A DNA stretch of 64,000 bases from a bacterium (GCA_020440645.1 JAGRNR010000009.1:5092-69091); one strand, 5' to 3'. Counted from the first letter of the stretch, positions 22,785-43,400 are shown. A program made the numbers and translations. Notes: generated by a model not told the origin, from the sequence alone.

Positions 22785-22785
22785 G

Positions 22786-27395: not shown

Positions 27396-28061
27396 GTGCC
27401 CCTATATTACTTGACAGTGCTGGCGCTCGCCGGGTTCCTGAGTGGATCCCTGCCCTTCGGCTGGCTTGTGGCGCGGCTCGGGGGCATGGACATCCGCAAG
27501 CATGGCAGCGGCAACATCGGCATGACCAATGTCTGGCGCGTGATGGGCTGGAAAGCGGGCCTGACTGTGCTGCTGCTGGACGTGGCCAAGGGCCTGCTGC
27601 CCGTGCTGCTGGCCGGGCGCCTGATGGACACCGTCAACCCACCGGGGCTGACGATCAGTGGCCGCGCCTGGCTGCTGCTGATCACCGGGCTGGCCGCGAT
27701 CCTCGGGCATACATTCACGCCCTGGCTGAAGTTCAGGGGCGGCAAGGGTGTCGCCACCAGCCTCGGTGTGCTGATCGCGCTCTACCAGTTATGGGTGTTG
27801 GCGCCGCTTGGCGTATTCCTGCTGGCGCTGGCAATCACGCGCATGGTGAGTGTCGGCAGCATCCTCGCCGCACTGAGTGTGGGCATCCTTGCGGTGGCCG
27901 TGCCGGCACTCAGGCCCTACATGGCGTTTGGCATCCCAGTGGCTCTGCTCGTGATCTGGACGCACCGCAGCAACATCCGCCGCATCCTCGACGGCACGGA
28001 AAGCCGCGTCGGCAGCGGGAAGAAAAAGCCCGCAGCGGAGTCAACCCAGGCGGATCAGTAG
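27396..28061 (+). CDS. plsY: Glycerol-3-phosphate acyltransferase PlsY
   Basis: Motifs SLPFGWLVARL, HGSGNIGMTNVWRV and GGKGVATSLGV. About 220 aa with multiple TM helices. Confidence 0.85.
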   Translation: MPLYYLTVLALAGFLSGSLPFGWLVARLGGMDIRKHGSGNIGMTNVWRVMGWKAGLTVLLLDVAKGLLPVLLAGRLMDTVNPPGLTISGRAWLLLITGLAAILGHTFTPWLKFRGGKGVATSLGVLIALYQLWVLAPLGVFLLALAITRMVSVGSILAALSVGILAVAVPALRPYMAFGIPVALLVIWTHRSNIRRILDGTESRVGSGKKKPAAESTQADQ

Positions 28062-29755
28062 ATCCCGGCGGAGTGGATCGAATCCAGCATTGCCGAATAG
28101 CCCGCTGACATATGCATCAGCCAGTTCGGATAGATGCCGAGGAAGATGATCGCAGCGCCGAGTGGCAACAGCACGATGGCCTCACGCAGCGGCACACGGC
28201 CCTTCGCCGACTCCGGTGCATCCCCCGGCAGCGTGCGCTGCAGCAGGCTGATCATGTACACCGCGCTCGTCAGCACGCCGATCACCGCCAGGGCCGAGAG
28301 GATCTGCAAAAGCAGGCTGCCGTCGATGCTGCCAACCAGCACCGTCTGCCAGCCCGGCCCGTTCTCGAACGCGCCCATTAAGCTGTACAGCTCGCCCCAG
28401 AAGCCGGCCAGCGCCGGGAAGCCCATGCCGGCGAAGGCCGCCAGCGAAAGCATGCCCGCCAGGAGCGGGGCCGCGCTGCCCAGCCCAGCGATCTCATGCA
28501 CGTTGCGTGTGCCGTAGCGCCGCTCGATGCTGTCCGCCAGCAGGAACAGCGTGGTGATGATCACGCCGTGGCCCACCATGTGGTAGATCGCGCCGGTCGT
28601 TGCCAGCGGGTTCATTGCGCTGCAGCCGAGGATGATGAAGCCCATGTGGCTGATCGAGCTGTAGGCGATCATGCGCTTGATGTCGGTCTGTACCAGCGTG
28701 ACAGCCGCGCCCCAGACGATGCCGATCACCGCCAGCGTGGCAACCACCGGGCCGATCGCGTAACCCTGGTCCGGCAGCGCCCAGTACAGCACGCGCAGGA
28801 ATGCGTATGTCCCGCTCTTGAGCATCACCGCCGCGAGGATCACCGACATTTCCGCCGGGGCCTGGGTATGGGCCGGCGGCAGCCAGGTGTGCAGCGGGAA
28901 CAGCGGTGCCTTGACGGCGAAGGCCACGAGGAAGCCGAGGAAGATCCACATCCTCAGCCAGGGCACGACATCCGTATAGCCCTCGTTCAGCAGGAAGGTT
29001 GCCAGGTTCGGGATCTGGAAGCTGTAAACGCCGGCGCTGATCACCTTGCAGATGATGAGCGACATCAGCATGAACACCGAGCCGGCCATGGTGTACACGA
29101 AGAAGCGGATCGCGGCGCGCGCCGCCTTCTCGCGGTCCTTGCCCCAGCCGCCGATCAGCACGTACATCGGGATCAGCATCCATTCCCAGAACAGGTAGAG
29201 CAGCACGAAGTCCAGCGCCACGAAGGAGCCGATCAGGCCGACCTGCATGAACAGGGTCAGCGCGAGGAATTCCTTCACCCGCTCCGTGCGGTACCAGCCC
29301 CAGATGATGATCAGTGGCAACAGCGCACAGGTCATCAGCACCAGTGGCAATGACAGGCCGTCGATGCCGACGTCGTAGTGCACGCTGAAGCTGCGGCTCT
29401 CGCCGATCTTGATCGCCATCCATTCGATGTCCTGGCGGTACTGGAAGCCCGGGAACTCCGCCTGGAAGGGCGTGTACTGCCCGAGCGGCTTCAGGTCCTG
29501 CACGTTCTGCGAAGTGTCCGTGTATCCGGCGTAGGGCCGCCAGCTGGTTGCACTTTCGGGCAGCCCGGTCAGCAGCAGCACCGCAAACAGCAGGCTGAGC
29601 AGCGAGAACACCAGGGCCACGATCTTGATTGGCAGGATCTTCTTCTTCGGGATCAGGCAGACCAGCAGGCAGCCGACCAGCGGGGCCAGCATCATCTGGG
29701 TGATGGGGTTGCTGATCCACGAGATGAAGCCTATGAAACTCTGCGTCTGGTCCAA
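28055..29755 (-). CDS. nuoM: Complex I antiporter-like subunit of the NuoM/NuoN family (only one copy present in the operon)
   Basis: 566 aa. Motifs WEWMLIPMYVLIGGWGKDREKAARAAIRFFVYTMAGSVFML and PLHTWLPPAHTQAPAEMSVILAAVMLKSGTYAFLR, typical of NuoL/M/N and MrpD-type subunits. Directly follows nuoL. Confidence 0.8.
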   Translation of the reverse strand: MDQTQSFIGFISWISNPITQMMLAPLVGCLLVCLIPKKKILPIKIVALVFSLLSLLFAVLLLTGLPESATSWRPYAGYTDTSQNVQDLKPLGQYTPFQAEFPGFQYRQDIEWMAIKIGESRSFSVHYDVGIDGLSLPLVLMTCALLPLIIIWGWYRTERVKEFLALTLFMQVGLIGSFVALDFVLLYLFWEWMLIPMYVLIGGWGKDREKAARAAIRFFVYTMAGSVFMLMSLIICKVISAGVYSFQIPNLATFLLNEGYTDVVPWLRMWIFLGFLVAFAVKAPLFPLHTWLPPAHTQAPAEMSVILAAVMLKSGTYAFLRVLYWALPDQGYAIGPVVATLAVIGIVWGAAVTLVQTDIKRMIAYSSISHMGFIILGCSAMNPLATTGAIYHMVGHGVIITTLFLLADSIERRYGTRNVHEIAGLGSAAPLLAGMLSLAAFAGMGFPALAGFWGELYSLMGAFENGPGWQTVLVGSIDGSLLLQILSALAVIGVLTSAVYMISLLQRTLPGDAPESAKGRVPLREAIVLLPLGAAIIFLGIYPNWLMHMSAGYSAMLDSIHSAGIY

Positions 29756-31918
29756 CTACTCGTACCTCCCGAGGAAGCTCTGAATGATGCGCCGCAGTGT
29801 CTCGTTGAGCGGGAAGGAGACGACAATGCACATCAGCACGGCACCCAACAGCAGCACGAACATGTAGTTCTGGATCTGCCCGTTCTGCCAGTAGCGGCCG
29901 TGCAGCCGCTTGATGATCCACCAGATCTCGCAGCACCACCAGCGGATGCCGTCGACGAAGTGCAGGTCAAGCCAGGCACTGGCATTGGCCAGCCCACGGC
30001 CGCCGCGCCCGATGCGCGTTGACAGCCAGTCGATCAGGCGGATGTCTGAAATGCCTGCAAGAATTGCGAGGAACTCGCCGAAGCCGCCCACCAGTCCCGT
30101 GAAGAAGGGCTTCAAGTACAGCCCCTCGCGGAAGAATCCGGTCACGCCTGTCAAGAGCGGGGTCGGGCTGGCCAGCCCGCGCTCCGAGGCGGAGACGAAT
30201 CCAAGCACTGCGCCGGCCAGCACCAGCACGACCGAGAGGCCGGCGGCCAGTGGTTCGAAGTTGCCTGCCCATTGCAGGTCGTGCAGCCGGCCCTCGAAAT
30301 AGGCGCGGTAGGATGGCCAGAAGGCGGCGATGCCGATGCTGCCGATGAGCGCCAGCAGGATGGAAATCACAGTCGGTCCGGCCCAGCCATTGCCTGCGGA
30401 CGCTTGCTCCGCCAGGCCATTGGCAGCCTCCTTGCCGGGGGAAGGCATCAGCCCGCTCAGCAGGCGCGCACAGTAGGCTGCGGTAAAGGGAATCGATGCG
30501 ATCAGCAGCAGCGCTCCGGCCTGCCAGTAACCCGGCATGGCGGGCATTGTGCTTGCCAGTGCGTTGCCACCGTAGTCCTGTCCGGCGCGGGACAGCAGCG
30601 CGGAGAGGATCTGGTCCTTGCCGAAGTAGCCCGCCAGCCCGATCACACCGGCCAGGCTCAGGCCGGCCGGCAGCAGGGCCAGCCAGAACAGCTGTCCGCT
30701 GGCGGGGGACTGCCTAAGGTCGTCAAAACTCGGTTCGTCGTCATTATGTGTTGCCTGGGCCTCATGCCAGCGCGCCACCACAATGCCGACCGCAAGGAAC
30801 AGCGCGGCCTTGAACCAGGCATGTGCCAGCAGCTGGAATCGCGCGGCCTCCATCGCCAGCGCCCCGCTGCCCATCACGCACAGCCCAAGCTGGCTGACCG
30901 TGCTCCAGGCCAGCAGCTTCTTCGGCTGCTGCTGGCAACAGGCCACGATCGAGCCCATGAGCATCGTCAGGCCGCCGAGCATCACCGCCCAGGCCAGCGG
31001 GGCCACGTACCAGCCGGGGTTGCCACTGTCCGCCTGCACCGGCACGACAGTTCGCCCGAACAGCAGGTCACTGGCCAACAGCGGCCCGGCCGCCACCAGA
31101 GTTGCACTGTGCAGCAGGGCACTGACCGGGGCCGGGGCCACCATCGCATCCGGCAGCCAGAATGACAGCGGCAGGAGTGCTGCCTTGCCGAGCACGGCCA
31201 GCAGGACTAATAGTCCGGCCACGATCATCCAGTTCACGGCGGACAGCTGGTCCGGTACATGCTGTGCCACCCAGCCGATGCTGACCTGGCTGAGCTGCAC
31301 CATGTGCACACCGAAGCGGCCGAAGCCGAACATGAAGATGAAGATCGCGAACAGCAGCCCGAAGTCCGTGGCGCGCGTCGTCCAGAAGGCCTGGCGCGCT
31401 GCCCGGTTGGCCTCCGGCGTGCCCTTGTGGCGGATCAGCAGGTAGCCGGCGAGGCCCATCATTTCCCAGGCGATGTACAGCAGGATCAAAGTGTCACTGA
31501 CGAGGAACAGCAGCATTGAGCCGCAGAAGAATGTCAGCAGCGCATGGAATTGCGCGGCCTTCGGGTCAGCGCGCCGCTCGCGGATTGCATACAGCAACAC
31601 CGCCACGCCGATCAGGCAGGTTGTCAGGATGAACAGCACCTGCGTGTAGTCCGCGCGCAGGGCCAGCGGGATCGGCGGGAAGGCGCGGATCTCCGTGGTG
31701 TAGCCGCTGATCCAGTTGACCATCCATACCGCGCGGCCGGTCTCGGCATCCAGTCCCGCATTGACGGCGAGCGCCATCCCGGCACTGGCCACAAGCGACA
31801 GCACGCCGAGCAGGGCCGTGACGACGGCCGGCACACGGCGCATGAGCAGGCCCGCCCCCGCCGCCAGCAGCGGCAGAAGCGCGATCAGCGGCAGCAGTCC
31901 CTGCATCTCAGGCACCAC
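29756..31918 (-). CDS. nuoL: Complex I subunit NuoL-like (MrpA-type antiporter-like subunit, 720 aa)
   Basis: Motifs LLYIAWEMMGLAGYLLIRH, LPDAMVAPAPVSALLHSATLVAAG and a long C-terminal extension. Confidence 0.85.
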   Translation of the reverse strand: MVPEMQGLLPLIALLPLLAAGAGLLMRRVPAVVTALLGVLSLVASAGMALAVNAGLDAETGRAVWMVNWISGYTTEIRAFPPIPLALRADYTQVLFILTTCLIGVAVLLYAIRERRADPKAAQFHALLTFFCGSMLLFLVSDTLILLYIAWEMMGLAGYLLIRHKGTPEANRAARQAFWTTRATDFGLLFAIFIFMFGFGRFGVHMVQLSQVSIGWVAQHVPDQLSAVNWMIVAGLLVLLAVLGKAALLPLSFWLPDAMVAPAPVSALLHSATLVAAGPLLASDLLFGRTVVPVQADSGNPGWYVAPLAWAVMLGGLTMLMGSIVACCQQQPKKLLAWSTVSQLGLCVMGSGALAMEAARFQLLAHAWFKAALFLAVGIVVARWHEAQATHNDDEPSFDDLRQSPASGQLFWLALLPAGLSLAGVIGLAGYFGKDQILSALLSRAGQDYGGNALASTMPAMPGYWQAGALLLIASIPFTAAYCARLLSGLMPSPGKEAANGLAEQASAGNGWAGPTVISILLALIGSIGIAAFWPSYRAYFEGRLHDLQWAGNFEPLAAGLSVVLVLAGAVLGFVSASERGLASPTPLLTGVTGFFREGLYLKPFFTGLVGGFGEFLAILAGISDIRLIDWLSTRIGRGGRGLANASAWLDLHFVDGIRWWCCEIWWIIKRLHGRYWQNGQIQNYMFVLLLGAVLMCIVVSFPLNETLRRIIQSFLGRYE

Positions 31919-31953
31919 CCACCTCCTGCTGTGTCGTCGTCATCTGCAAGTCG

Positions 31954-32439
31954 TCAATCCTTCATCAGGTTGGCATCATCAAGCATGATGCTCTTCTTCA
32001 TGCGGTAGAAGGCGATGATGATCGCCAGCCCGACCGCAGCCTCAGCCGCAGCAACGATGATCACGAATATCGAGAACACCTGGCCCATGTTCGTCATCAC
32101 GGATTCCTCCGCGGTGAACGAGGCCAGGGTGGATTTCGGTCCGTAGTAGAAGTTGAACGCGCTCATGTTGATGTTGACGGCGTTGAGCATCAGCTCCAGC
32201 GCCAGCAGCATCCCGATCGCATTGCGCCGCGCGATCACGCCGTACAGCCCGAGGCAGAAGATGAACGCGCTGAGCACGAAGTACTGGTGGTAGTCCACGT
32301 TGGTGAACCACACCATCGGCGTGTCGCCACTTGAGGCGAACCACTGGCGCGAGGCGAACTCGATCGCCTGGATGATCGGCGCCAGGCCCTCGCTCGCCAG
32401 CGAGCCACCCTCGGACTGTTGCAGCAGCAGCAGTAACAT
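31954..32439 (-). CDS. nuoK: Complex I subunit NuoK, with a possible N-terminal extension of about 40 aa
   Basis: ORF 31954..32652. The internal ATG at 32437-32439 overlaps the nuoJ stop (ATGA coupling). NuoK core: YFVLSAFIFCLGLYGVIARRNAIGMLLALELMLNAVNINM ... AEAAVGLAIIIAFYR. Confidence 0.75.
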   Translation of the reverse strand: MLLLLLQQSEGGSLASEGLAPIIQAIEFASRQWFASSGDTPMVWFTNVDYHQYFVLSAFIFCLGLYGVIARRNAIGMLLALELMLNAVNINMSAFNFYYGPKSTLASFTAEESVMTNMGQVFSIFVIIVAAAEAAVGLAIIIAFYRMKKSIMLDDANLMKD

Positions 32440-33485
32440 CAGTCCTTCCTCACCAGGATGATCGCGCCGAGCATCGCCATGAGCAGGAGCACGCTGGCCA
32501 CTTCGAAGGGAAGTGTGTACGTTGCCATCAGCGACCAGCCGATGGCCTGGGTATTGCTTGTCAGTACTGCCGCACTGGGCGGGAACTCGGTGTTCTGCGG
32601 GAACTGCATGAACATCCCGACGAGCGCCATGAAGCCGAACAGCATCGTGCACAAAAGCGCGGCCCAGGGGCTCAGGTCAGTGTTCTGCCTGAGCTCGGTG
32701 CCGATGATGTTCTGGCTGACCATGATGCCGAACAGGAACAGCACCATGATGCCGCCGATGTAGATGATCACCTGCACCATCGCGAGGAACTCAGCGTTGA
32801 GCAGGATGAAGTAGCCGGCCACGCCGAACAGCGAAAGGATCAGCATCAGCGCGGAGTGGAACACGTTGCGCATCGTTACGCAACCGATGCCGCCGCCGAC
32901 CACGCCCGCCGTGAACAGCCAGAAGAAGAAGTTCAGCAGCCTGAGCGCGGGCACGCTGAGTGCCAGCATGCCCCAGAAGAAGGCGATGAAGCCAACGACT
33001 GTGAGGATTGCCAGCAGGCGCCGGTGGTCATGGAAGCGGTGCAGCGAAAGCTGCACGCAGGCGATCGTGCCGCCGACCAGCCCGAGGATCAGCATATTTG
33101 AAAGGTTGACAACCAGCGGCTGGAACAGCAGGGAGCTGATCACGAACACCGCCAGGCCAGCGCTGGCTGCCACCCGCAGCAGTCCGGCCTCCGCCGGCAG
33201 GCGGTTGAACAGCATCAGGTTCAGCAGGTAGAAGCCGGCGAGCATGCTGGCGCCCACCAGGATGCGTGCGTCCAGCTGCAAGGCCGCGGACCAGTCCAGT
33301 TTTCCACCCAGCGCTGCCAGCGGGGCGGCCAGCAGCGCCACAAGCACCGCGATCCCGGCCGTTGCCAGCAGCTGGCGGAAGATGCCGTCCAGCCGGTTGA
33401 CGAGCAGTCCGGCGGCCGCCAGCAACGCGGCCAGCAGGGCCACATTGCGCAGCAGCATAAGGGCGGCGGGCAGGCTGGTTTCCAT
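32439..33485 (-). CDS. nuoJ: Complex I subunit NuoJ with an N-terminal multi-TM extension of about 190 aa
   Basis: The C-terminal half matches NuoJ (FHSALMLILSLFGVAGYFILLNAEFLAMVQVIIYIGGIMVLFLFGIMV ... EVASVLLLMAMLGAIIL). The N-terminal half is additional hydrophobic helices. Confidence 0.75.
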   Translation of the reverse strand: METSLPAALMLLRNVALLAALLAAAGLLVNRLDGIFRQLLATAGIAVLVALLAAPLAALGGKLDWSAALQLDARILVGASMLAGFYLLNLMLFNRLPAEAGLLRVAASAGLAVFVISSLLFQPLVVNLSNMLILGLVGGTIACVQLSLHRFHDHRRLLAILTVVGFIAFFWGMLALSVPALRLLNFFFWLFTAGVVGGGIGCVTMRNVFHSALMLILSLFGVAGYFILLNAEFLAMVQVIIYIGGIMVLFLFGIMVSQNIIGTELRQNTDLSPWAALLCTMLFGFMALVGMFMQFPQNTEFPPSAAVLTSNTQAIGWSLMATYTLPFEVASVLLLMAMLGAIILVRKD

Positions 33486-34480
33486 CAGGAACTCACCTCC
33501 CCGCGTGGCCGCCTGAGCGGCAGCACCAGCGCCTCGCGATTGGCAACCGGCATCGCCCAGCGCTCCTCGAACACGACGAGCGGGGTGCCGTCCGCGCGCT
33601 TCAGTTCGCCCAGCGCGGGATCATGGTCATAGCGTCCGAGGTCAACGAACAGCACCGTCGGCTGCCCGGGGGCCTGCGCGATTGCACCGCTGCCATCGGC
33701 GGCGATGATGCGCAGCGCTTCCTCCTCAGTCAGTGAGTCGACATTCAAGAGCGGCACGCCGCGGTAGGCCGCCGGCAGCTTCGGCCGGCTGCGCGGATAG
33801 TCCTCGGTGAAGGGCTCGCTCGAAGCCATCCGGGCGGTCTCGCGGAAGCCGGTCAGCACGGAGGTGCCGTAGCGGTGCACGCGGTTGCTGAAGAACCAGA
33901 ATTGGCTGAAGCCGGTTGCAAGGTAGCTCAGGTTGAGCACGAACACCAGGAACCAGAACAGCGCCCAGAGCATGAAGTAGCCGAGCTGGAACTTGAACAC
34001 GGGGAGGCTGCCGGTCTCGCGCCAGATGGCGAAGCCCTCGCCGCTGAGCAGAAGCGTCAGGTTCGGCGTGTCGGCAATGCCCTTCACGCTCATCTTCGGG
34101 TGGATGCGGTCCAGCGGGTCGAATTCCACGATGAAGAAGAACAGGATGATCACGAACAGCAGCAGACGCCAGAGCGTGAAGTCGCGCACCATCCAGCGGC
34201 TGTACTTCACAAGCGCGCCGGATGCCCACCAGAAGAAGCCGAGAATCGCCGGCAGGGCCAGCAGCAGGCCGCTAGCAGTGAACCACATCAGAGAGTACTG
34301 CTCGGAGGGCTGCTTGGAGGCATAGTCGTCAAACAGCGCGCCGTATTTCGTGTAGACGAACACCAACGTGAACCAGGACACGGCGATGAAGCCATAGAAC
34401 TTGAACCAGTCCATCGCGGTGTAGCCGAACCAGCGCTTCGGCAGCGGATGGTGGATTGTCAGGTCATGCCCGTCAGGCAT
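33485..34480 (-). CDS. Hypothetical membrane protein embedded in the nuo-like operon (about 331 aa: 4-5 TM plus a C-terminal soluble domain)
   Basis: ORF 33485..34561. Likely start MPDGHD. Its stop overlaps the nuoJ start (ATGA). No Cys motifs and no match to any known complex I subunit. Confidence 0.55.
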   Translation of the reverse strand: MPDGHDLTIHHPLPKRWFGYTAMDWFKFYGFIAVSWFTLVFVYTKYGALFDDYASKQPSEQYSLMWFTASGLLLALPAILGFFWWASGALVKYSRWMVRDFTLWRLLLFVIILFFFIVEFDPLDRIHPKMSVKGIADTPNLTLLLSGEGFAIWRETGSLPVFKFQLGYFMLWALFWFLVFVLNLSYLATGFSQFWFFSNRVHRYGTSVLTGFRETARMASSEPFTEDYPRSRPKLPAAYRGVPLLNVDSLTEEEALRIIAADGSGAIAQAPGQPTVLFVDLGRYDHDPALGELKRADGTPLVVFEERWAMPVANREALVLPLRRPRGEVSS

Positions 34481-34943
34481 GCTGCACCTCCTCCACCGTT
34501 TCCGGCTCGTTGGCAGCACTGCCGCCCGCTCCTGCTGCGGCGATGTTGCGCAGCTGGGCATGGTGCCCGGGCGCCGTCACCACGAACCAGTAGAGGAAGC
34601 CGGGCAGCAACAGCAGCACCGGCCGCAGTGTGAACTGCAGTTCGTACTGCAGCCACAGCGAATACAGGCAGCCGCAGGCCGCGAAGCTCCACAGCAGGGA
34701 AGCGATGCCGGGCCGCCGCCTGAACCAGGGGTTGATCCAGGCCGCATTGCGCGCCGGCGTCAGCGGCAGCACCGCCAGCAGCAGGCCGATTGCCAGCAGG
34801 GCCAGCGGGCCGAACCACTGCGTTGTCAGCACGGGTGCCACTCCAAGCACGATGCGCAGGTACAGGCCCCAGGCCCCGGCGGCCACGAGCAGCAGCTCTC
34901 CGAGGAGATGCAGCAGGTTCTGGCTGGTTGACAGCATCCTCAT
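34473..34943 (-). CDS. Hypothetical membrane protein embedded in the nuo-like operon (about 156 aa, 3-4 TM)
   Basis: ORF 34473..35042. Likely start MRMLSTSQNLL immediately after the nuoH stop. Overlaps the downstream gene by about 8 nt. Confidence 0.5.
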   Translation of the reverse strand: MRMLSTSQNLLHLLGELLLVAAGAWGLYLRIVLGVAPVLTTQWFGPLALLAIGLLLAVLPLTPARNAAWINPWFRRRPGIASLLWSFAACGCLYSLWLQYELQFTLRPVLLLLPGFLYWFVVTAPGHHAQLRNIAAAGAGGSAANEPETVEEVQHA

Positions 34944-36715
34944 CCGGTCCAGCTCACCTCCCGGCGGGGCTGCGGATGTCGGCGCTGCACGAACAGGATG
35001 CGCCAGGCCATCAGGAGGATGAACAGGCCGAAGAACAGGCACAGCACGTTGTAGCCCCAGAAGAAGGCCTTCTCGGGGACTGTCATCACCGCCAGTGCTT
35101 CAGCTGTTGTCAGCGTCTGGTACTGGGTGACGCGCTGCAGGGCGGTCACGTCGACATCGGAGACGGCCAGCTGGTTCGCGCTGAACCAGGGATGGCGGTT
35201 GACGACGCCGAGCGCGGTGGCCGCCATCACGACCACGCTGGCCGGCAGCAGGAACTTCCAGGAGAAGAACATGATCTGGTCCACGCGGATGCGCGGCATC
35301 GTGGAGCGCGCCCATATGAAGAAGAAGCACACGGCGTAGGTCTTCAGCAGGAACCAGAACAGGCTCGTCAGCCACAATCCGTCGGGGCCGAGGAACATCG
35401 GGCCCTTCCAGCCGCCGAAGAAGCAGACGGTCATGATCGCGCTGACGATGAACACGTTGGAGTACTCGGCGACATAGAACAGCGCGAAGCGCATCCCGCT
35501 GTACTCCACCAGGTAGCCGCCCAAGAGCTCGTTCTGCGCTTCCGGCAGGTCAAAGGGCGGGCGGTTGGTCTCGGCAAGGCTGACAACGAGGTAGATGATG
35601 AAGGCCGGGAACAGCGGCAGGATGCCCCAGGTCATCGTCTGGCGCTGCACGATCTCCGTCAGGTTCAGCGAACCGGCAAAGATGGCAACGCACAGCAGGC
35701 TCATCAGCATCGGGATTTCGTAGGTCAGCAGCATCGCGGCCTCGCGCATCGCGCCGACCAGTGCATATTTGTTGTTGGAGGCGTAGCCGGACATGATCAC
35801 GGCCACGAGGAACATCGCAAAGTCGGCGATGATCAGGAGCAGGCCGACATTCAGGTCCTGGATCATGTAGTAGATGATCTGCCCGTCGACAGCCGCCACG
35901 CCGAACGGGATCACCACCCAGCTCAGGAGCGCCGGCAGGTAGACGAGGATCGGCGCGATCAGGTACAGCAGCTTGTCAGCGCTGAGCGGAACGGTGTCTT
36001 CCTTGAAGAAGATCTTGATCGTGTCGTAGAAGCCCTGGCGCCAGTAGTAGCGCAGCATGTAGCTCATGTAGAGCACGAAGGCGACCACGGTGCACAGCAC
36101 GGTGAGCTGCGGCAAAAACGGGATGTGCGCCTTCGGGATGAAGCCCAGCAGGAGAGCGACGAGCATGCCACCGCAGGACGCGAGGGATGGCCAGGCCAGC
36201 AGTGACAGCAGCGTTGCCAGGAAGCGCCAGACGGAGGTCTGCGCGGCCTGCATCCGGCCGAGCGCTGGCAGGATCATCAAGCGGTTGATCAGCCCCATCA
36301 TGCCCACGGCGAAGAACAGGATGATCCAGCCGCCGAACTGTTGCCAGCCGGCGGTGCCGCCGGTCCAGTAGTTGATGCCGTACAGCAGCGCGGGCAGGCC
36401 GATCAGCACGCCGATCTGCAGGAAGATCCGCCGGAAGCGCTGCGGGGTGACCTCGCCGTACTCCTGCGGGCCGCGGCGGCCCTGCATGCGCGCCATCAGG
36501 CGGCGTTCCCAGACCTGCAGGCCGATGGTGATCATCAGCTCCAGGAGGAAGATCAGCAGGAGCGCCGTCACCAACATGATGCCGTTGGCAACCTCCGGGC
36601 TGAAGCGCAGGCCGGGCAGCGGCTCGGTGTTGAGCCAGGCGCGCATCGCCTCCCAGACGGTGCGGGCCTCGTCCATGTCGTAGCGCTGCTGCAGGATTGC
36701 CAGCATCGGGAGCAT
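34940..36715 (-). CDS. nuoH: Complex I subunit NuoH with N- and C-terminal extensions (about 591 aa)
   Basis: ORF 34940..36793. The likely ATG overlaps the nuoD TGA stop by 1 nt (ATGA). NuoH core motifs: IKIFFKEDTVPLSADKLLYLIAPIL, ADFAMFLVAVIMSGYASNNKYALVGAMR and AETNRPPFDLPEAQNELLGGYLVEYSGMRFALFYVAEY. About 200 extra N-terminal residues (4-5 TM) and about 100 extra C-terminal residues. Confidence 0.8.
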   Translation of the reverse strand: MLPMLAILQQRYDMDEARTVWEAMRAWLNTEPLPGLRFSPEVANGIMLVTALLLIFLLELMITIGLQVWERRLMARMQGRRGPQEYGEVTPQRFRRIFLQIGVLIGLPALLYGINYWTGGTAGWQQFGGWIILFFAVGMMGLINRLMILPALGRMQAAQTSVWRFLATLLSLLAWPSLASCGGMLVALLLGFIPKAHIPFLPQLTVLCTVVAFVLYMSYMLRYYWRQGFYDTIKIFFKEDTVPLSADKLLYLIAPILVYLPALLSWVVIPFGVAAVDGQIIYYMIQDLNVGLLLIIADFAMFLVAVIMSGYASNNKYALVGAMREAAMLLTYEIPMLMSLLCVAIFAGSLNLTEIVQRQTMTWGILPLFPAFIIYLVVSLAETNRPPFDLPEAQNELLGGYLVEYSGMRFALFYVAEYSNVFIVSAIMTVCFFGGWKGPMFLGPDGLWLTSLFWFLLKTYAVCFFFIWARSTMPRIRVDQIMFFSWKFLLPASVVVMAATALGVVNRHPWFSANQLAVSDVDVTALQRVTQYQTLTTAEALAVMTVPEKAFFWGYNVLCLFFGLFILLMAWRILFVQRRHPQPRREVSWTG

Positions 36716-37866
36716 CACTTGTCGACCTCCCCGATCATGATGTCGAGGCTGCCGTAGATCACGAACAGGTCCGCCAGCAGGTAGCCGCGGCACAGCTCGT
36801 CCAGCAGGAACAGGTGGTACAGGCTCGGCGCACGCAGGTGCATGCGGCTCGGGCGGTTGCTGCCGTCGCTGACGAGTGTCAGGCCGAGCTCGCCGCGCGG
36901 GCTCTCGACCGCCGTGTAGACCTCGCCGCGTGAGACCTGCATCGCAGCGAAGTCTGGGCTGACATCCGCCGCCCGCAGCTCGCCGTTGTCAATGTAAGCC
37001 AGGCAGTGCTCAATGATGCGCAGGCTCTCGCGCATCTCGACGAAGCGCACGCGGTAGCGGTCCAGCACATCGCCATACTCGCCGGTCGGCACATGCAGCT
37101 CCAGCTCGCCGTACATCGCATAGGGCTGGTCGCGGCGCAGGTCATGCGCGATCCCGCTGCCGCGCAGCACGGGCCCGGTGGCACCGTGCTCGAAGGCGAA
37201 CTCGGGCTCGAGCGTGCCGATCAGCTCGCTGCGGTTGACCCAGATCGCGTTGTCAGAGAAGAAGTCCTCGTATTCATCCAGCCGGCCCTGGAACCACAGG
37301 CAGAATGCCCGCACATGGCCGCTGAAGTCCTCCGGCGGGGCAGTGCGCACGCCGCCGGGCACGATCCAGCCGTGGTGGTGGCGGTGCCCGCTGAGCATCT
37401 CCAGCAGGTCGAGCAGCATCTCGCGCTCGCGCAGCGAGATGAAGATCGGGGTGTAGGCGCCGGCCTCCAGGCCGAGGTTGCCAAACCAGAACAGGTGGTT
37501 GCCGATCCGGCTCAGCTCCAGCACAAGGGTGCGCAGCCACTGCGCACGGGCCGGAACCGTGATCCCCTCGATGCGCTCGATGGCGTCCGCCACCAGCCAG
37601 TCCGCATTGCTGCCGGCCAGCCACTCGCAGCGGGACAACAGCCCCGCCGCCTGGGCGTAGTTGCGCTGGGTCACCAGCTGCTCCACGCCGCGGTGCATGA
37701 AGCCGACCTCCGGCGTGATGCGCTCGATCAGCTCGCCGTCCGCCTGTACCCGCAGTTCCAGCGGGCTCGGCAGGCTCGGATGCTGCGGGCCGACGGAGTA
37801 GACCAGCTTCTCGGTCAGCAGCGGGTCGCGGCGGATCTCGACACGGCGATCAGAGCTGCGCGTCAT
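36715..37866 (-). CDS. nuoD: Complex I 49-kDa subunit NuoD-like (no [NiFe] cysteine motifs)
   Basis: Motifs VGPQHPS, EVGFMHRGVEQL, RIGNHLFWFG and C-terminal SLDIMIGEVDK. ATG at 37866 (the track starts at the TTG three nt upstream). Overlaps nuoC by about 20 nt. Confidence 0.85.
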   Translation of the reverse strand: MTRSSDRRVEIRRDPLLTEKLVYSVGPQHPSLPSPLELRVQADGELIERITPEVGFMHRGVEQLVTQRNYAQAAGLLSRCEWLAGSNADWLVADAIERIEGITVPARAQWLRTLVLELSRIGNHLFWFGNLGLEAGAYTPIFISLREREMLLDLLEMLSGHRHHHGWIVPGGVRTAPPEDFSGHVRAFCLWFQGRLDEYEDFFSDNAIWVNRSELIGTLEPEFAFEHGATGPVLRGSGIAHDLRRDQPYAMYGELELHVPTGEYGDVLDRYRVRFVEMRESLRIIEHCLAYIDNGELRAADVSPDFAAMQVSRGEVYTAVESPRGELGLTLVSDGSNRPSRMHLRAPSLYHLFLLDELCRGYLLADLFVIYGSLDIMIGEVDK

Positions 37867-38434
37867 CAAGCACCTCCCGCATCGCCGCGTCCGCGCGCTG
37901 TTTCAGCACGTTTTCAGCGTAGTTCTCATGTGAGGCAGCCCTGAACTCCCGCCTGAGCGGGAAGCCCTGCAGCTGCGGGTCGAGGATCAGGCCAATGAGG
38001 TTAGGGTTGCCGGCGAAGGGGATGCCGAAGAACTCGAAGATCTCGCGCTCCATCAGCTCCGTGGCCCGCCAGATCAGGCTCAGGCTGGGGTGCACGCTCT
38101 GCCCGGCATAGGCCGGCGCGGCCTCGCTGTCCTCCCCGCCCGGATCCGTTGCCGGGGGATTGCCCTCCAGCAGGGTGAATTTCCATTTCAGTGTGAGGCT
38201 GACGTCATGCCGCCTGCCGTGCCTGAGCGTCAGGTAGAGGTGGAAGTCCGGCCCGCCGAGGTGGTTGGCGGTCATGTTCAGCGCACGGATGAAGCCGATG
38301 TTCTTCAGCTGGCGGCAGACCAGCGGCAGCTGGCCGCTGTCCGTCAGGATCGCCCAGCCGCGGGCGGGGTCCAGCAGCAGCACATCACCGCAGTCCTCAC
38401 GGATCTGACCGGCAAGCTCATCAGGGAGCACCAA
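37850..38434 (-). CDS. nuoC: Complex I 30-kDa subunit NuoC
   Basis: NuoC signature SLSLIWRATELMEREIFEFFGIPFAGNPNLIGLIL. First gene of the operon, downstream of an AT-rich spacer. Confidence 0.85.
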   Translation of the reverse strand: MVLPDELAGQIREDCGDVLLLDPARGWAILTDSGQLPLVCRQLKNIGFIRALNMTANHLGGPDFHLYLTLRHGRRHDVSLTLKWKFTLLEGNPPATDPGGEDSEAAPAYAGQSVHPSLSLIWRATELMEREIFEFFGIPFAGNPNLIGLILDPQLQGFPLRREFRAASHENYAENVLKQRADAAMREVLDDAQL

Positions 38435-38749
38435 GTCCTCCCCATCCTGGCTGGATTACGGCAATCGGCATACAGGTATAAACGATCAAAAGCCCCACAG
38501 CGTTACCTTATACATACAAAATGCAAAGGCTTTTGTAATTCTAGCCGATGGGGCAGCGCTGATCACCGCCTGCAGGCAATTGGTTGAAGGGCGTGTGGGT
38601 CTGCCAGCCCAATTGTTAACAGCGGGAAAATCAAAGTAAAGTCCCGATTCAATTAGTTGATTCATTATCTTGCGAGCCTGGATAATTTCTATAATTCAAA
38701 TCGTCAGACCCAGTCTGTACCGGTTGAATTCAAGATTCCAGGTCAAGGC
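38435..38749. promoter_or_regulatory. AT-rich divergent promoter region between nuoC (minus strand) and the small-membrane-protein/histidine-kinase pair (plus strand)
   Basis: AT-rich sequence with TATAAT-like hexamers (ggataatttctataattcaaatcg; caattgttaacagcgggaaaatcaaagtaaag), in contrast to the flanking GC-rich coding sequence. Confidence 0.4.
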
Positions 38750-39025
38750 ATGCCACAGCAGCATGAATTAATTACTGCAATCCTCGGACTTGGCGTGTTG
38801 TTGCTGATGATCGTGCAACGCCGCCAGCTGCGGCTCATCCCTGACTACCGCTGGCTGTTCCTCTCCTACTGCCTGATCCTGCTGGCCTGGCTGCTGACCA
38901 TTGCGGAAGATTACTGGCTGCCGGTCTACATGAACCTGCTGGAGCATATCTGTTACCTGGCCAGCGCAGCGCTGGTCGCCTGGTGGACACAGAAGTTCCT
39001 CAGAAGGGAAGCGCCACAGCAATGA
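38750..39025 (+). CDS. Small hypothetical membrane protein (about 91 aa) translationally coupled to the histidine kinase gene
   Basis: ORF 38657..39025. Likely start MPQQHELITAILGLGVLLLM. Its TGA stop overlaps the kinase ATG (ATGA). Confidence 0.45.
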   Translation: MPQQHELITAILGLGVLLLMIVQRRQLRLIPDYRWLFLSYCLILLAWLLTIAEDYWLPVYMNLLEHICYLASAALVAWWTQKFLRREAPQQ

Positions 39026-40836
39026 GCATGCTGCTGACGGTGTTTGACCTGCTGAGCCTGCTGGCCGTGCTGTCTGCACTGTGGCTGGCGGCAGCCAGGC
39101 GGATTGCCGGCCTGCGGCGTGACTACCTGTGGTGCCTGATCATCCTGCTGGTGGTGCTGGGTCTCAACTTCCTCAGCAACCTGCTGGACAACAGCGGGCT
39201 GAGCCCCTGGCTGGAGCGCTTCGAGGACTACCCCGGACTGCTGCAGCCGGTGTTCTGGGGCATCCTCCTGATGAGCCTGGTGCAGGACCGCGCCCTGCGC
39301 CGCACCGAGCTCTCTGAACAGCGGCTGCGCGGCCTGCTGGACGCGATGCGTGACGGGGTTGCCACTATTGACCCGGGTGGCGTGTTCCGCTTTGCCAACC
39401 CGGCGGCCGCGGAAATCCTCGGGGTTGCCCACGGCAGCCTTAGCGGCCGCAGTCTGGACGAGTTCTGGCTGGCTACCGAATCGCATACTTGCCGGATGCT
39501 GCCACATTCCCCGGGCCAGGATTACAGCGCCTACGAATGCGGCATCCGCCATGGCAGCGGCGACAGCCTCGTGCTGCTGCTGCAGGTCTCGCCGATCCCG
39601 GGCCAGCCCCGCCAGCGCCTGCTGTTCATGCATGATGTGACCCCGCTGCGCCGGGCCGAGCACAGCCTGCAGCAGGCCCAGGCCCAGCTCGGACAGGCCC
39701 AGCGGCTGGAGGCGATCGGCACGCTGGCCAGCGGCATCGCCCATGACTTCAACAACATCCTGTTCGCGATTTCCGGCAACAGCCAGATCGCGCTGGATAC
39801 TGAGGGACTGACCGTCGATGCGCGGGAGAGCCTGCGCGAGATCGACACCGCCAGCCGCCGCGCCTCCGACCTGGTGGCGCAGATCCTCAACTTCAGCCGC
39901 AGCGAGAAGAGCCGGACACGGGACCTGTTGCCACTTCCGGTTGTCAAGGAAGTGCTGCGCCTGCTGCGCTCCACCGTGCCGCCGCAGGTCAGCATCCAGC
40001 TCAGCCATGACGAATCGACGTGCCGGATCCATGCCGACCCGACCGACCTGCACCAGCTGCTGATGAACCTCTGCACCAATGCGATCCAGGAGATGGCGGT
40101 GGAGGGCGGGACGCTGCGGGTCCGGTTGGAGTGCAGCAATCCACCGCCGACACTGGCCGAGCGGGGAATGCTGCAGCCTAAACCACACCTGATGCTCAAG
40201 GTCAGTGACACGGGGGGCGGTATTCCACCGGATGCGCTGCCGCACATCTTCGAGCCCTTCTTCACGACCAAGCCAAGCGGTGAGGGCACCGGTCTAGGGC
40301 TGTTCGTTGTCAGCGGGATCGTCAAGCGCCTGCAGGGACAGATCGAGATTGACAGCGAACCGGGCCATGGCAGCAGCTTCACGGTCTGGCTGCCGCTGTC
40401 CAGCGGGGCCGCTGATGCCGACGATGCCGGGCCGGGGCAGGCCACCGGCCGCGGCCGGGGCCGGCTGCTGGTGGTTGACGACGAGCCGGCGGTCAACCGG
40501 GTGCTGGCGCTGATGCTCGGCCAGCTCGGCTACAAGGTGACAACCTATAGCGACAGCTACCGCGCGCTCAGTGAGTTCCAGACCAACCCGGAGCAGTACG
40601 ACCTGCTGCTGTGCGACATCTCGATGCCGGGCCTGCGCGGCGATGAACTGGTGAAGCGGATACGCTCCGTTCGCCCAGGCCTGCCGGTGGTGCTGTGCTC
40701 CGGCAATCCGGATGTTCTGCCTCCGGGCAGTGCAACTGAACTGGGTGTGCATGCAGTGCTTAAGAAACCGGTTGACAAGCCACAGCTGGCGGATTGCATC
40801 GCCGAGGCACTTGGCAGTAACCGTGCACAGGCCTGA
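39022..40836 (+). CDS. Hybrid sensor histidine kinase (TM sensor, PAS, HisKA, HATPase_c and C-terminal receiver domains)
   Basis: ORF 38983..40836. H-box IGTLASGIAHDFNNIL. HATPase G-boxes DTGGGIP and GEGTGLGL. REC domain LLVVDDEPAVNRVL ... DLLLCDISMPG ... K. PAS-like segment before the H-box. Confidence 0.8.
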   Translation: MSMLLTVFDLLSLLAVLSALWLAAARRIAGLRRDYLWCLIILLVVLGLNFLSNLLDNSGLSPWLERFEDYPGLLQPVFWGILLMSLVQDRALRRTELSEQRLRGLLDAMRDGVATIDPGGVFRFANPAAAEILGVAHGSLSGRSLDEFWLATESHTCRMLPHSPGQDYSAYECGIRHGSGDSLVLLLQVSPIPGQPRQRLLFMHDVTPLRRAEHSLQQAQAQLGQAQRLEAIGTLASGIAHDFNNILFAISGNSQIALDTEGLTVDARESLREIDTASRRASDLVAQILNFSRSEKSRTRDLLPLPVVKEVLRLLRSTVPPQVSIQLSHDESTCRIHADPTDLHQLLMNLCTNAIQEMAVEGGTLRVRLECSNPPPTLAERGMLQPKPHLMLKVSDTGGGIPPDALPHIFEPFFTTKPSGEGTGLGLFVVSGIVKRLQGQIEIDSEPGHGSSFTVWLPLSSGAADADDAGPGQATGRGRGRLLVVDDEPAVNRVLALMLGQLGYKVTTYSDSYRALSEFQTNPEQYDLLLCDISMPGLRGDELVKRIRSVRPGLPVVLCSGNPDVLPPGSATELGVHAVLKKPVDKPQLADCIAEALGSNRAQA

Positions 40837-40884
40837 CGGGCGGGCGCGTCAGTGCTTTGTGATATACATGGGGAGGAGGCAGGC

Positions 40885-41250
40885 ATGGCGAAGAAGAAGT
40901 TCGAGGATGTGGACCCGCAGGTGCTGGCGGCCTACATGAAGATGATCGGGGGCGTTGAAGGGGTCGAGGCCAAGGGGGCCGCCGCGCCGTACACCTCCCT
41001 GAATGGCAATATGTACTCCAGTATCTCGAAGTTCAACGAGATCGGCCTGCGGCTGGCGAAGGATGAGCGCGAGGCCTTCCTCGAGAAGTACGACACCCGG
41101 CTCTACCACTCCATCCCCGGATATGTGCAGCGGGAGTATGTCACCGTGCCGCCTGCACTGTTTGGCAACACACGCACTCTGCGCAGCTGGTTCCGGAAGT
41201 CCTACGACTACGTCTCATCACTGCCGGCGAAGCCCACGAAGAAGAAGTAG
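40885..41250 (+). CDS. Hypothetical protein (about 121 aa)
   Basis: ORF 40852..41250. Likely start MAKKKF, preceded by GGAGGAGG. Lys-rich termini. No assignable motif. Confidence 0.5.
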   Translation: MAKKKFEDVDPQVLAAYMKMIGGVEGVEAKGAAAPYTSLNGNMYSSISKFNEIGLRLAKDEREAFLEKYDTRLYHSIPGYVQREYVTVPPALFGNTRTLRSWFRKSYDYVSSLPAKPTKKK

Positions 41251-41320
41251 CGGGAAGGATTTCGGCGCTCGCTTGTCGGCAGTAGCGGGCGCGCTTGGCG
41301 ACGCCATGGAGTGATTGCCG

Positions 41321-41471
41321 CGAAGCAATGAGTGATGGTGTGTTGGTCTGCAGACCAACAGGGCCCTGTGGCTCTCAAGAGCCACACTCCGCCGCGTGCG
41401 CGCAGCCACGCGGAAAGCCCCTCTGCAATGAGCAATGCGGAGCAAGCAATGAGCCCGACGACACTCATTGC
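41321..41471. other. Cluster of four consecutive hairpins/palindromes with a thrice-repeated GCAATGAG motif in a 490-bp convergent intergenic spacer (candidate structured RNA or repeat element)
   Basis: TTGGTCTGCAGACCAA (perfect 16-bp palindrome, 41343-41358). GTGGCTCT-ca-AGAGCCAC (41368-41385). CGCGTG-cgcgcagc-CACGCG (41393-41412). GCAATGAG-cccgacgaca-CTCATTGC (41445-41470). GCAATGAG also occurs at 41325 and 41425. Confidence 0.35.
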
Positions 41472-41741
41472 CAGACTCTGCGGCTCTGCGTTCACCAATA
41501 TCGCTCCACCCCAGCCGCATTGCCAACCAAGTGCAGGCTAGCCTCAGCCCAGTCAAACTGGAGAATTGTCAACACAGAGCCACCGAGCGCACAGAGTTTT
41601 CTGATCAGCTCCAGTCCCCGCATTTCCCTGACTTCGCTGCATCCCCTCCCAATCGCGGCTGGGCCGCGCCGGTTCTTCCGGTAACCCTGACCCTTGTTCT
41701 TCAGGTTGACTGATTCACTGGGAAATCCGAGACGAGCCAGT

Positions 41742-42539
41742 CTATGAATACAGAAGATCCTCAAAATCCTCCGTCAGCTCTCCATGGAAAGTAGGGTAGT
41801 CAACCCTCCGGACATTGCGCCGCCATGGTCGCGGCCCCAGCTCGCTGCTTGTAAGCAGCTTGAGGTGAAGCGGATCGACATCTGTTGCCAGGCTGCATTC
41901 CGATCCGATGATCCCGTCTTTGTCCATGAAGTCCGTGTTTGGCCAGATATTGAAACTGCGACCGGATGACGTCCGGATCGAAGTCGGATTGAAGCCCATG
42001 GCAATCTCCATGGCATTGTAGCTTTCCCTGCGGATATCCAGCGGCAGGGCAAACCTTGACTGCTCAACATGCGCTGCATCCGACAATGCAGACTCTCCCT
42101 TTTGCCATTCGGGAAGGGGCATCGAGGCACTCAGGATGACAAAGGCCTTCTCTTGCCAGACGCCCGCATGATCCCTGACACAGCATGGGAACATCAGCCA
42201 CTTCATCCGCCGTTGAAACGCCGCGAATCCCACGCTGCCAATGTTCAGCAGCAGTTCCGCAAGCACTTTCGCCGGTTTCTCCATACCGGCATCCCAGGAC
42301 CTGGCCTTATCCAGGCAGCCTGCCGGAATTCTGAGCAGAAATCCCGATGCATGATCGAGATACCAGTCGGCATTGCATCTGGTGCAGATGTGCAGGATTC
42401 CGCGTTGCCAGCTTTCCCTGCGGATGATGAGCTTGTGCAGTTTGAAGTATGGGGTTTCCTCCCGGACACTTGCAGGAGGATCAGGATCCCAGGGGAGTGA
42501 TTCCCTGACCTGACAAGGGCAGCTGGCCTTGATACTCAT
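41742..42539 (-). CDS. Hypothetical protein (265 aa) with an N-terminal Cys cluster (CPC...CTRC), co-oriented downstream of nuoA-nuoB
   Basis: Protein-like composition, 20 nt downstream of the nuoB stop. The four Cys in SCPCQ...HICTRC suggest a small zinc-ribbon. Not a ferredoxin-type CxxCxxCxxxCP motif. Confidence 0.5.
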   Translation of the reverse strand: MSIKASCPCQVRESLPWDPDPPASVREETPYFKLHKLIIRRESWQRGILHICTRCNADWYLDHASGFLLRIPAGCLDKARSWDAGMEKPAKVLAELLLNIGSVGFAAFQRRMKWLMFPCCVRDHAGVWQEKAFVILSASMPLPEWQKGESALSDAAHVEQSRFALPLDIRRESYNAMEIAMGFNPTSIRTSSGRSFNIWPNTDFMDKDGIIGSECSLATDVDPLHLKLLTSSELGPRPWRRNVRRVDYPTFHGELTEDFEDLLYS

Positions 42540-42558
42540 GGTTCATGGTAATGCGATC

Positions 42559-43011
42559 CTACCGCCACGCAAACCGCTCATCCAGCGCACCCGAGAGGAT
42601 GCGCTCCCGGAGCGCGATGATGCCGTCGATCAGCTGCTCGGGCCGCGGCGGGTCGCCCGGCACATAGATGTCCACTGGTACGATGCGGTCCACTCCCCCG
42701 TCCACCGCATAGCTGCCGTCGAAGGGCGCGCCGCTGATCGCCCCCGCGCCAAACGCCATCACGAAGGCCGGGTCGGCCATCGAGGCATGCAGCCGGCGGA
42801 TCACCGGGGCCATCTTGTTGTTGACGACGCCGGCCACGATCAAAAGGTCCACCTGGCGCGGGCTGGGGCGCATCACCTCAGAGCCGAAGCGCGCGATGTC
42901 ATAGCGCGGCGAGATCGCGCTGAACAGTTCCAGCGTGGCGTAGTCCAGTCCGAGCATCAGCGGCCACAGGGAATGGGCACTGGCCTCGCGGATGAGGTCC
43001 TTCAGACCCAT
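42559..43011 (-). CDS. nuoB: Complex I 20-kDa subunit NuoB-like, with all four N2 cluster cysteine ligands replaced
   Basis: Clear NuoB scaffold (SLWPLMLGLDYATLELFSAISPRYDIARFGSEVMRPSPRQVDLLIVAGVVNNKMAPVIRRL ... RIVPVDIYVPGDPPRPEQL). The canonical CC, C (GACATSG) and C (PGCPP) positions read DY, G (GAGAISG) and D (PGDPP). Confidence 0.8.
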   Translation of the reverse strand: MGLKDLIREASAHSLWPLMLGLDYATLELFSAISPRYDIARFGSEVMRPSPRQVDLLIVAGVVNNKMAPVIRRLHASMADPAFVMAFGAGAISGAPFDGSYAVDGGVDRIVPVDIYVPGDPPRPEQLIDGIIALRERILSGALDERFAWR

Positions 43012-43400
43012 TCCAGCGCTCCCTTGCGGTAGGCATAGGCCCAGCCGACGAGCAGGATGCCGAGGAACACGAACATCTCGCCCAGTGAGGCGGCCCCGAT
43101 CGGCGTGAAGGTGATGTCGTCATTGCCGAACACCAGCAGCCGGAAAGCGGTGGCCCAGGGGAAGATGAACATGATGTCCACGTCGAACATGAGGAACACG
43201 ATCGCGAGGATGTAGAAGCGGATGTTGAAGCGCACCAGCGCATCGCCGGTGGCCTGCGCGCCGGATTCATAGCTCAGGCGCTTGAGGAAGTTCGGCCGCC
43301 GCGGACGCCACAGGTTCAGGAAAGCGAATGCCAGCCCGATCAGCACCGCCCCGCCCAGCAGGAAGAGTGCCACCCAGTTGTACTGTCCAACGGTGTTCAT
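43002..43400 (-). CDS. nuoA: Complex I subunit NuoA
   Basis: 132 aa, three TM. The NuoA motif is FDVDIMFIFPWA. Overlaps nuoB by 10 nt. Confidence 0.85.
   Translation of the reverse strand: MNTVGQYNWVALFLLGGAVLIGLAFAFLNLWRPRRPNFLKRLSYESGAQATGDALVRFNIRFYILAIVFLMFDVDIMFIFPWATAFRLLVFGNDDITFTPIGAASLGEMFVFLGILLVGWAYAYRKGALEWV

Follow-up and report, generated by a model that had tools for sequence, protein, structure and literature searches.

A Complex I-Type Operon Whose Q-Module Subunits Have Lost Their Iron-Sulfur and Quinone Ligands

Within the superfamily that includes complex I, the Ehr/Mbx-type complexes keep iron-sulfur (Fe-S) clusters in their small and NuoI-like subunits and remain redox enzymes, and to our knowledge the Mrp antiporters, which have no Q-module, are the only redox-free relatives. 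The Ehr/Mbx-type complexes have lost the ancestral catalytic site, i.e., the NiFe ligands (PMC6349859), and complex I in which the ion domain is disconnected from the redox domain behaves as a Na+/H+ antiporter, as found for the deactive mitochondrial enzyme (Roberts & Hirst 2012, PMC3464577). Here, we analyzed a locus in a 64,000-nucleotide (nt) stretch of bacterial DNA (GCA_020440645.1, JAGRNR010000009.1:5092-69091), which we call the window and in which positions are counted over the whole stretch. We found that this locus encodes an 11-subunit complex-I-type descendant consisting of NuoA, NuoB′, NuoC, NuoD′, NuoH, X1, NuoI′ (= X2), NuoJ, NuoK, NuoL, and NuoM, in which the ligands of the Q-module cofactors are gone while the residues of the proton paths persist.

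The closest described systems are complex I and NDH-1, in particular the 11-subunit forms without NuoEFG. They have in common with the window the subunits NuoA, B, C, D, H, I, J, K, L, and M in canonical order, NuoB and NuoD sequences for which true complex I is the nearest match, and both the proton-path residues and the NuoH loop between transmembrane (TM) segments 5 and 6, bar E218. In contrast to complex I and NDH-1, the window has no ligands for clusters N2, N6a, and N6b, no quinone-binding His/Tyr, no NuoN (leaving two antiporter-like subunits), a membrane-anchored NuoI, and about 18–20 extra TM helices (contributed by a NuoH insertion, a NuoJ extension, X1, and the NuoI′ anchor).

NuoB′ (42559..43011, 150 amino acids [aa]; like all nuo genes of the window, on the minus strand) matches Pfam Oxidored_q6 and is a homologue of NuoB/PSST without the ligands of cluster N2. 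Its best PDB match is Nqo6 of Thermus thermophilus (E = 6e-38, HMMER), and in that alignment C45, C46, C111, and C140 of Nqo6 are replaced with Tyr, Ala, Gly, and Asp, respectively, leaving none of the four N2 ligands and, in the whole protein, no cysteine. The loss of the Fe-S ligands from NuoB had been proposed in an earlier, sequence-only reading of this DNA, which proved right on this point, although it gave the former tandem cysteine pair as Asp-Tyr where the HMMER alignment gives Tyr-Ala. Three alignment methods were concordant on the lost ligands. We also surveyed the best 120 database relatives of NuoB′, which revealed that two to four N2 ligands are lost in all 48 clusters of the window's clade (61–97% identity; usual pattern, Y-A-G-D), whereas all 72 outgroup matches outside this clade have C-C-C-C. 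One of the clade sequences, a fragment on the 503-nt contig P0087, keeps the tandem CC, with the remaining two ligands changed to Gly and Asp; it may be a further intermediate.

NuoD′ (36715..37866, 383 aa; Pfam Complex1_49kDa, E = 2e-80) passes the NCBIfam cut-off for the NuoD equivalog, and its PDB scores place it nearest the 49-kDa subunit of complex I (E = 3e-84), ahead of MBS (1e-61), Mbh (4e-44), and FHL (5e-32). The Ech, Mbh, Mbx, and Ehr complexes differ from the window in having a hydrogenase-type large subunit, and an Ehr or hydrogenase origin was rejected because NuoD′ is far nearer to the complex I 49-kDa subunit than to Mbh. The protein reads GPQHPSLPSP where canonical NuoD has GPQHPSTHGV, and SRCEWLAG where the canonical motif is DRxDYL. 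These changes concern the two ligands of the quinone headgroup (His38 and Tyr87 in T. thermophilus Nqo4 numbering). In all 39 NuoD sequences of the clade, Tyr is replaced with Trp and the His position has become variable (P, A, V, T, I, C, or S), whereas every outgroup NuoD keeps both His and Tyr. Substitutions fixed in the clade (L32, P35, S78, and W82) lie around the old quinone chamber, and a deletion of ~21 aa corresponds to residues 500–520 of E. coli NuoCD. The sequence-only reading had not mentioned the loss of the NuoD quinone ligands.

The third Q-module subunit at issue is NuoI, which the same reading had considered absent. Between nuoH and nuoJ lies X2 (33485..34480, 331 aa), which combines an N-terminal domain of three to four TM segments with a C-terminal domain; its AlphaFold model (pLDDT, the predicted local distance difference test score, of 82.7) shows long N-terminal TM helices followed by an alpha/beta domain. 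We found no match for X2 in Pfam or NCBIfam up to E = 10, and its 43 homologues are all unannotated and have no conserved cysteine. Weak tests based on sequence or structure pointed to NuoI: a profile of X2 against PDB sequences gave marginal matches to NuoI only (E of about 1–2), Foldseek against PDB ranked a NuoI homologue at the top without significance (E = 1.3), and hhalign against E. coli NuoI alone gave a weak match (E = 0.004 over 31 columns), with the sequence-only tests converging via the motif TxxYPxxxxxLPxxYRG. A profile search of 1.84 billion representatives then connected X2 to distant relatives (E = 3e-24 to 4e-13) that join the same TM domain to a NuoI domain in which both CxxCxxCxxxCP motifs are present; the N-terminal TM domain of this group carries FYWW and DP(L/F)(D/N) motifs. 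One such cysteine-complete relative sits between nuoH and nuoJ in the related locus L018, and a profile-profile comparison of X2 with six TM-NuoI proteins extended over X2 residues 21–324 (probability 99.9%, E = 2.5e-32). Because these cysteine-containing intermediates match X2 over its full length, X2 is, as judged from homology, a cysteine-free NuoI with a membrane anchor, which we call NuoI′. In the window protein, all eight NuoI cysteines are lost and no other cysteine is present; the cluster-less state is fixed in 41 X2 sequences. Contrary to the sequence-only reading, a NuoI-like subunit therefore does exist at the locus, without clusters and anchored in the membrane.

Taken together, the alignments demonstrate that the ligands of all three Q-module Fe-S clusters (N2 in NuoB; N6a and N6b in NuoI) are lost, as are both quinone-headgroup ligands of NuoD. 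These losses support a redox-dead complex that would be able neither to hold the Q-module clusters nor to bind quinone in the canonical manner and that, with no electron transfer, would not be a redox-driven pump. The proposal of the sequence-only reading that this is a derivative of complex I with no Fe-S chain is, in this respect, well supported.

Two related loci show how such a complex may have come about. L018 (8326-18404) holds ten genes in the order nuoABCDH-I′-JKLM, with only two antiporter-like subunits and without nuoEFG or nuoN; its NuoI′ (359 aa) is cysteine complete and fused to the N-terminal TM domain. L019 (6045-15753) comprises the same ten genes. Specifically, L018 keeps the four cysteines of NuoB, both His and Tyr of NuoD, and both NuoI′ motifs, and L019 is half decayed: in NuoB, CC has become ED, and the other two cysteines Gly and Ser; in NuoD, His has become Trp and Tyr Ile; and in NuoI′, the “CP” of motif 1 and C1–C3 of motif 2 (CxxCxxC) remain, which amounts to one complete four-cysteine set. 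An isolated [4Fe-4S] cluster may thus persist in the L019 protein. The window clade completes the series with Y/A/G/D in NuoB, a variable residue and Trp at the NuoD positions, and no cysteine motif in NuoI′. In a rough neighbor-joining tree of NuoD without support values, the window clade groups with L019 and then with the L018 group, all within canonical NuoD. The L018 type resembles the window in gene order, in its two antiporter-like subunits, in the lack of nuoEFG and nuoN, and in a TM-anchored NuoI with homology along the entire protein; unlike the window, it keeps the NuoB cysteines, both CxxCxxCxxxCP motifs, and the NuoD His/Tyr, and has neither X1 nor the long NuoJ extension. The window operon shares the gene order of the L018/L019 group, its TM-fused NuoI, and its lack of nuoEFG and nuoN in the operon. 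The window complex arose from an ancestor that was already without NuoEFG and NuoN and already had a membrane-anchored NuoI. The redox-competent sister type represented by L018 seems itself to be undescribed.

The same series bears on the idea that the complex is still a redox enzyme, working through a non-Fe-S cofactor or through a partner, such as a flavoprotein, a cytochrome, or a ferredoxin module, that docks on the NuoB′/C/D′/I′ cap. Since the L018 ancestor type is also without nuoEFG, its electron donor is encoded outside the operon; the NuoI′ of L019 keeps one possible [4Fe-4S] site; and the part of the 4.1-Mb genome beyond our search scope offers room for a partner. However, NuoB′ and NuoI′ have no cysteines, both quinone ligands are gone with the former His position not even conserved, and the changes fixed in clade NuoB and NuoD have brought no Cys or His. 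Moreover, we found no conserved His pair in the added TM segments and, in about 11 contexts, no conserved flanking gene that could encode a soluble partner. We therefore regard continued redox catalysis as improbable, and a hidden redox partner as unlikely.

The remaining genes of the operon were identified from an ORF (open reading frame) listing combined with Pfam and NCBIfam, which recovered nuoA, B, C, D, H, J, K, L, and M on the minus strand, where they had been placed before. The operon starts with nuoA (43002..43400, 132 aa; Pfam Oxidored_q4, E = 1e-27) and nuoB′ and continues, beyond a block of unrelated genes, with nuoC (37850..38434, 194 aa; Complex1_30kDa, E = 1e-15), nuoD′, nuoH (34940..36715, 591 aa; NADHdh, E = 3e-97), X1 (34473..34943, 156 aa), X2, nuoJ (32439..33485, 348 aa; Oxidored_q3 over residues 199–344), nuoK (31954..32439, 161 aa; Oxidored_q2), nuoL (29756..31918, 720 aa; Proton_antipo_M, with NdhF/NuoL as the best PDB matches), and nuoM (28055..29755, 566 aa; Proton_antipo_M). 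Together with PDB, these matches group the subunits with true complex I and not with hydrogenases. The start of nuoK is most likely at 32439, to judge from its N-terminal extension, which is kept in relatives. The genes overlap by 10, 17, 1, 4, 8, 1, and 1 nt, with gaps of 35 and 0 nt at the other junctions, in agreement with the tight coupling noted earlier, and a GGAGG-like ribosome-binding site precedes nearly every nuo start. A scan for promoters and terminators was uninformative for the operon except for one promoter-like site upstream of nuoC (38691-38664), which is weak evidence, and an Rfam scan of the operon and six related loci revealed no riboswitch or other RNA. The core subunits of the Q- and P-modules of complex I are nearly all present (10 of 11, counting X2 as NuoI); NuoN is missing from the operon of every clade member. 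Besides NuoL, there is a single NuoM-type subunit, as the PDB scores (NuoM, E = 3e-73; NuoN, 7e-24) confirm for a claim made from the sequence. Also upheld were the claims that the locus lacks nuoEFG and any CxxCxxCxxxCP motif: no genuine ORF of the 64-kb window contains this motif, nuoEFG were not in the operon at any locus examined, and Pfam gave no match to NuoE, NuoF, NuoG, NuoN, or Fer4 in 29 neighboring large-ORF proteins, a set that does not include at least four ORFs (552-1631, 47904-49997, 50092-52914, and 62949-63620).

Next to be considered is whether the operon could be an artefact, with NuoB misaligned or with a canonical nuo cluster cut short or wrongly joined in assembly. The sequence-only reading had itself named a truncated assembly as grounds for refutation, and in the window the operon is indeed broken by 3.3 kb of unrelated genes. 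However, the exact NuoB sequence of the window occurs on 24 contigs, including the closed 4.11-Mb chromosome CP060262.1 (isolate HK-STAS-UBP7_A-1) and contigs from assemblies produced independently (ENA, Logan, and JGI), with an identical or near-identical locus. Eight species-representative genomes have the same gene order (genome scan, with synteny by tblastn), so the 11-gene arrangement, for which a metagenome search had been suggested, recurs well beyond the window; in distant relatives (L007, L008, and a JGI contig), nuoA-B-C-D-H-X1-X2-J-K-L-M is contiguous. Together with the agreement of the three alignment methods, these observations refute truncation and leave an artefact with a negligible probability.

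The gene set is under selection. Compared with the orthologues in L010, all 11 genes have dN/dS ratios (nonsynonymous over synonymous substitution rates) of 0.05–0.49, with single values of 0.05 for NuoA, 0.15 for NuoB′, 0.16 for NuoD′, 0.29 for X2, and 0.49 for X1. The operon orthologues are kept down to about 45–60% identity in at least eight species, and the subunits at the junction of the two arms are the best conserved across the clade (NuoA, 81%; NuoK, 83%; NuoD, 69%; NuoJ core, 68%; NuoB, 67%), the values for NuoA and NuoK being identities to the L007 orthologues. The gene set is thus held by selection in the whole lineage.

Selection is also evident in the membrane arm, for which we compared the proton-path residues with those of the E. 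coli reference locus (L017; E. coli numbering throughout). NuoA keeps D79 and has a conservative change of E81 to Asp; NuoH keeps E36, R37, D63, E157, D213, E216, E220, and E228 and has lost only E218; NuoJ keeps Y59 and E80; NuoK keeps E36 and E72; NuoL keeps E144, D178, K229, H254, H338, K342, K399, and D400; and NuoM keeps E144, K234, K265, E407, H322, and H348. Apart from NuoH E218 and the NuoA substitution, all canonical proton-path residues checked in NuoA, H, J, K, L, and M are therefore retained. The NuoA loop between TM1 and TM2 is near-identical in the window, L007, and L008 orthologues.

These data speak to the idea that the operon is a relic in decay, or that its product translocates no ions of its own and has a non-catalytic role as a scaffold or regulator. 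Loss of cofactors is the first expected sign of enzyme decay, and the operon tolerates insertions (in the window, a kinase/TfoX-like block; in L015, a toxin-antitoxin pair). Against this, all 11 genes are intact and constrained within the dN/dS range given above, the set has been maintained across species at the identities given above, the buried charges of the proton paths, which drift would erode first, are still in place (NuoH E218 excepted), and the residues that have replaced Cys and Tyr have in turn become fixed. A relic or inert scaffold is accordingly very improbable.

The membrane arm carries several additions. NuoH has an insertion of ~135 aa (~4 hydrophobic segments) between TM1 and the first amphipathic helix, at a site that in published structures is the quinone entry region, and a C-terminal extension with one TM segment. 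NuoJ has an N-terminal multi-TM extension of ~185 aa, which measures ~60 aa in L007 and L008 and is longer in the window lineage. Neither the NuoH insertion nor the NuoJ extension matched Pfam or NCBIfam up to E = 10. In NuoK, the TM2-TM3 loop has gained 14 aa in a clade-specific insertion, and the N terminus is extended by ~40 aa; in the C-terminal 280 aa of NuoL, there are hydrophobic segments and a stretch that weakly matches TM16. X1 is an orphan accessory protein of four hydrophobic helices, with no Pfam or NCBIfam match up to E = 10, no relation to any other subunit by hhalign, and a low-confidence single-sequence AlphaFold2 model (pLDDT 61). Most clade members have an orthologue in the same position (~30% identity), and it is missing from L018 and L019.

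What might such a complex do? Its most likely role, which we consider somewhat probable, is that of a redox-independent ion translocator coupled to the proton motive force, most simply a cation/proton antiporter, by analogy with known systems, because the proton paths are intact and ion gradients are its sole source of energy and because the charged and polar residues of the two antiporter-like subunits and of the “E-channel” (NuoH/A/J/K) are kept under purifying selection. It would exchange ions as do Mrp or deactive mitochondrial complex I; the cofactor-less NuoB′/C/D′/I′ cap would have the structural role of plugging or gating what was once the quinone chamber; and the extra TM helices (NuoH insertion, NuoJ extension, X1, and NuoI′ anchor) would remodel the quinone entry region. 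The deactive mitochondrial enzyme is in a reversible state with a full cofactor load, whereas the uncoupling in the window is genetic and permanent. Mrp likewise is redox independent, with NuoL/M-like (MrpA/D) and NuoK-like (MrpC) subunits and no cofactor ligands, but has no homologues of NuoB, C, D, H, or I; X1 and X2 gave no match to its small subunits MrpB/E/F/G in Pfam or NCBIfam. By its subunit sequences, then, the window complex is a descendant of a redox enzyme and not of Mrp. Some points weigh against ion exchange: both antiport and the identity of the ion are proposed by analogy only; the sodium-module subunits of Mrp/Mbh (MrpE/F/G) were not detected with Pfam or NCBIfam; and, since our searches covered the 64-kb window and the operon neighborhoods, a partner module or a canonical complex I may lie elsewhere in the 4.1-Mb genome. 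In addition, NuoB′, NuoD′, and the coupling loops are conserved beyond the apparent need of a passive cap, a hint that the old quinone site may have a mechanical role or one that depends on a ligand.

Such a role could take the form of a mechanical device driven by the proton motive force, in which protons passing through the intact membrane arm would make the coupling loops run in reverse and perform non-redox work in the remodeled quinone chamber, possibly on a membrane molecule of hydrophobic or isoprenoid nature that it would bind, extract, flip, or sense. Conservation within the complex is highest in the junction subunits and loops, the acidic residues of the NuoH TM5-6 loop are kept bar E218, the NuoA TM1-2 loop is nearly unchanged, purifying selection on NuoD′ and NuoB′ is strong (dN/dS of about 0.15), the clade-fixed NuoD changes surround the old chamber, and the NuoH insertion of ~4 TM segments lies at the quinone entry. 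Set against these features, there is no candidate substrate, no pathway is suggested by a conserved neighboring gene, we found no new motif for ligand binding, and a surviving cavity is an assumption; we consider this device doubtful. Only tentatively do we put forward the wider proposal of a naturally evolved, permanently redox-free complex I that still employs the entire machinery coupling the quinone site to the proton channels and that either performs such gradient-driven work on a new ligand of the quinone chamber or is a ligand-gated conductor of protons or cations.

The block that separates nuoB from nuoC in the window (38983-42539, an insertion of ~3.3 kb) is lineage specific. It contains a hypothetical ORF of 265 aa after nuoB (41742..42539, minus strand), which has a CxC...CxxC pattern and no Pfam or NCBIfam match, as well as a hybrid PAS histidine kinase-response regulator (38983-40836) and a TfoX_N-like ORF (40852-41250), both recognized by Pfam on the plus strand. 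The 265-aa ORF has a low GC content at third codon positions (0.65, versus about 0.88 for the nuo genes), occurs in close relatives only, and is missing from L007, L008, and L019, in which nuoB abuts nuoC; it is outside the conserved system. The kinase, present in L002 and L004, is missing from the closed-genome strain (L001) and three other assemblies (L003, L005, and L006) and was rejected as a part of the system for being strain variable. Other loci carry insertions of their own: an MntA-like nucleotidyltransferase and a HepT-like RNase form a toxin-antitoxin pair in the place of X1 in L015 (9214-10004), and an extra membrane ORF of 178 aa without a Pfam match lies between nuoD and nuoH in L015 (6865-7401) and L016 (6960-7496).

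Directly upstream of nuoA are four consecutive genes on the same strand (43454-52914), two of which encode large PKD-domain proteins by Pfam (699 and 498 aa); counterparts of the other two (697 and 940 aa) in L001 and L002 carry PKD matches, and the gene set of L018, too, has a PKD protein after it. Elsewhere in the window, there is a motA-motB-fliL-like cluster, i.e., a proton-driven stator (21025-24071), ~4 kb from the operon end at which nuoM lies, and the regions 1628-4021 and 57978-60308 each encode a large protein with ankyrin repeats (797 and 776 aa, respectively).

We found no published description of an Fe-S-free complex I in the literature searched, in which coverage of subscription journals was thin; within that coverage, the earlier view that such a derivative had not been described holds. 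The window lineage keeps a Q-module that is, on present alignments, stripped of every cofactor ligand, with the pump residues preserved, and fully liganded, half-decayed, and cofactor-free stages all survive in living genomes. This series runs from a redox pump to a redox-free device, opposite to the usual story of complex I origin, and provides a natural test case for the role of the Q-module and its loops when quinone chemistry is absent. PGAP/NCBIfam and JGI label the subunits “NADH-quinone oxidoreductase subunit B/D”, and, as a consequence of this misleading annotation, metabolic reconstructions of these uncultured bacteria (isolates labelled UBP7) would wrongly credit them with a respiratory complex I. 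If gradient-driven work or ligand-gated conduction does take place at the former quinone chamber, the complex would add a new functional class to the complex I superfamily and would offer, in nature, an “engine-less” model of the coupling between the two arms of complex I.

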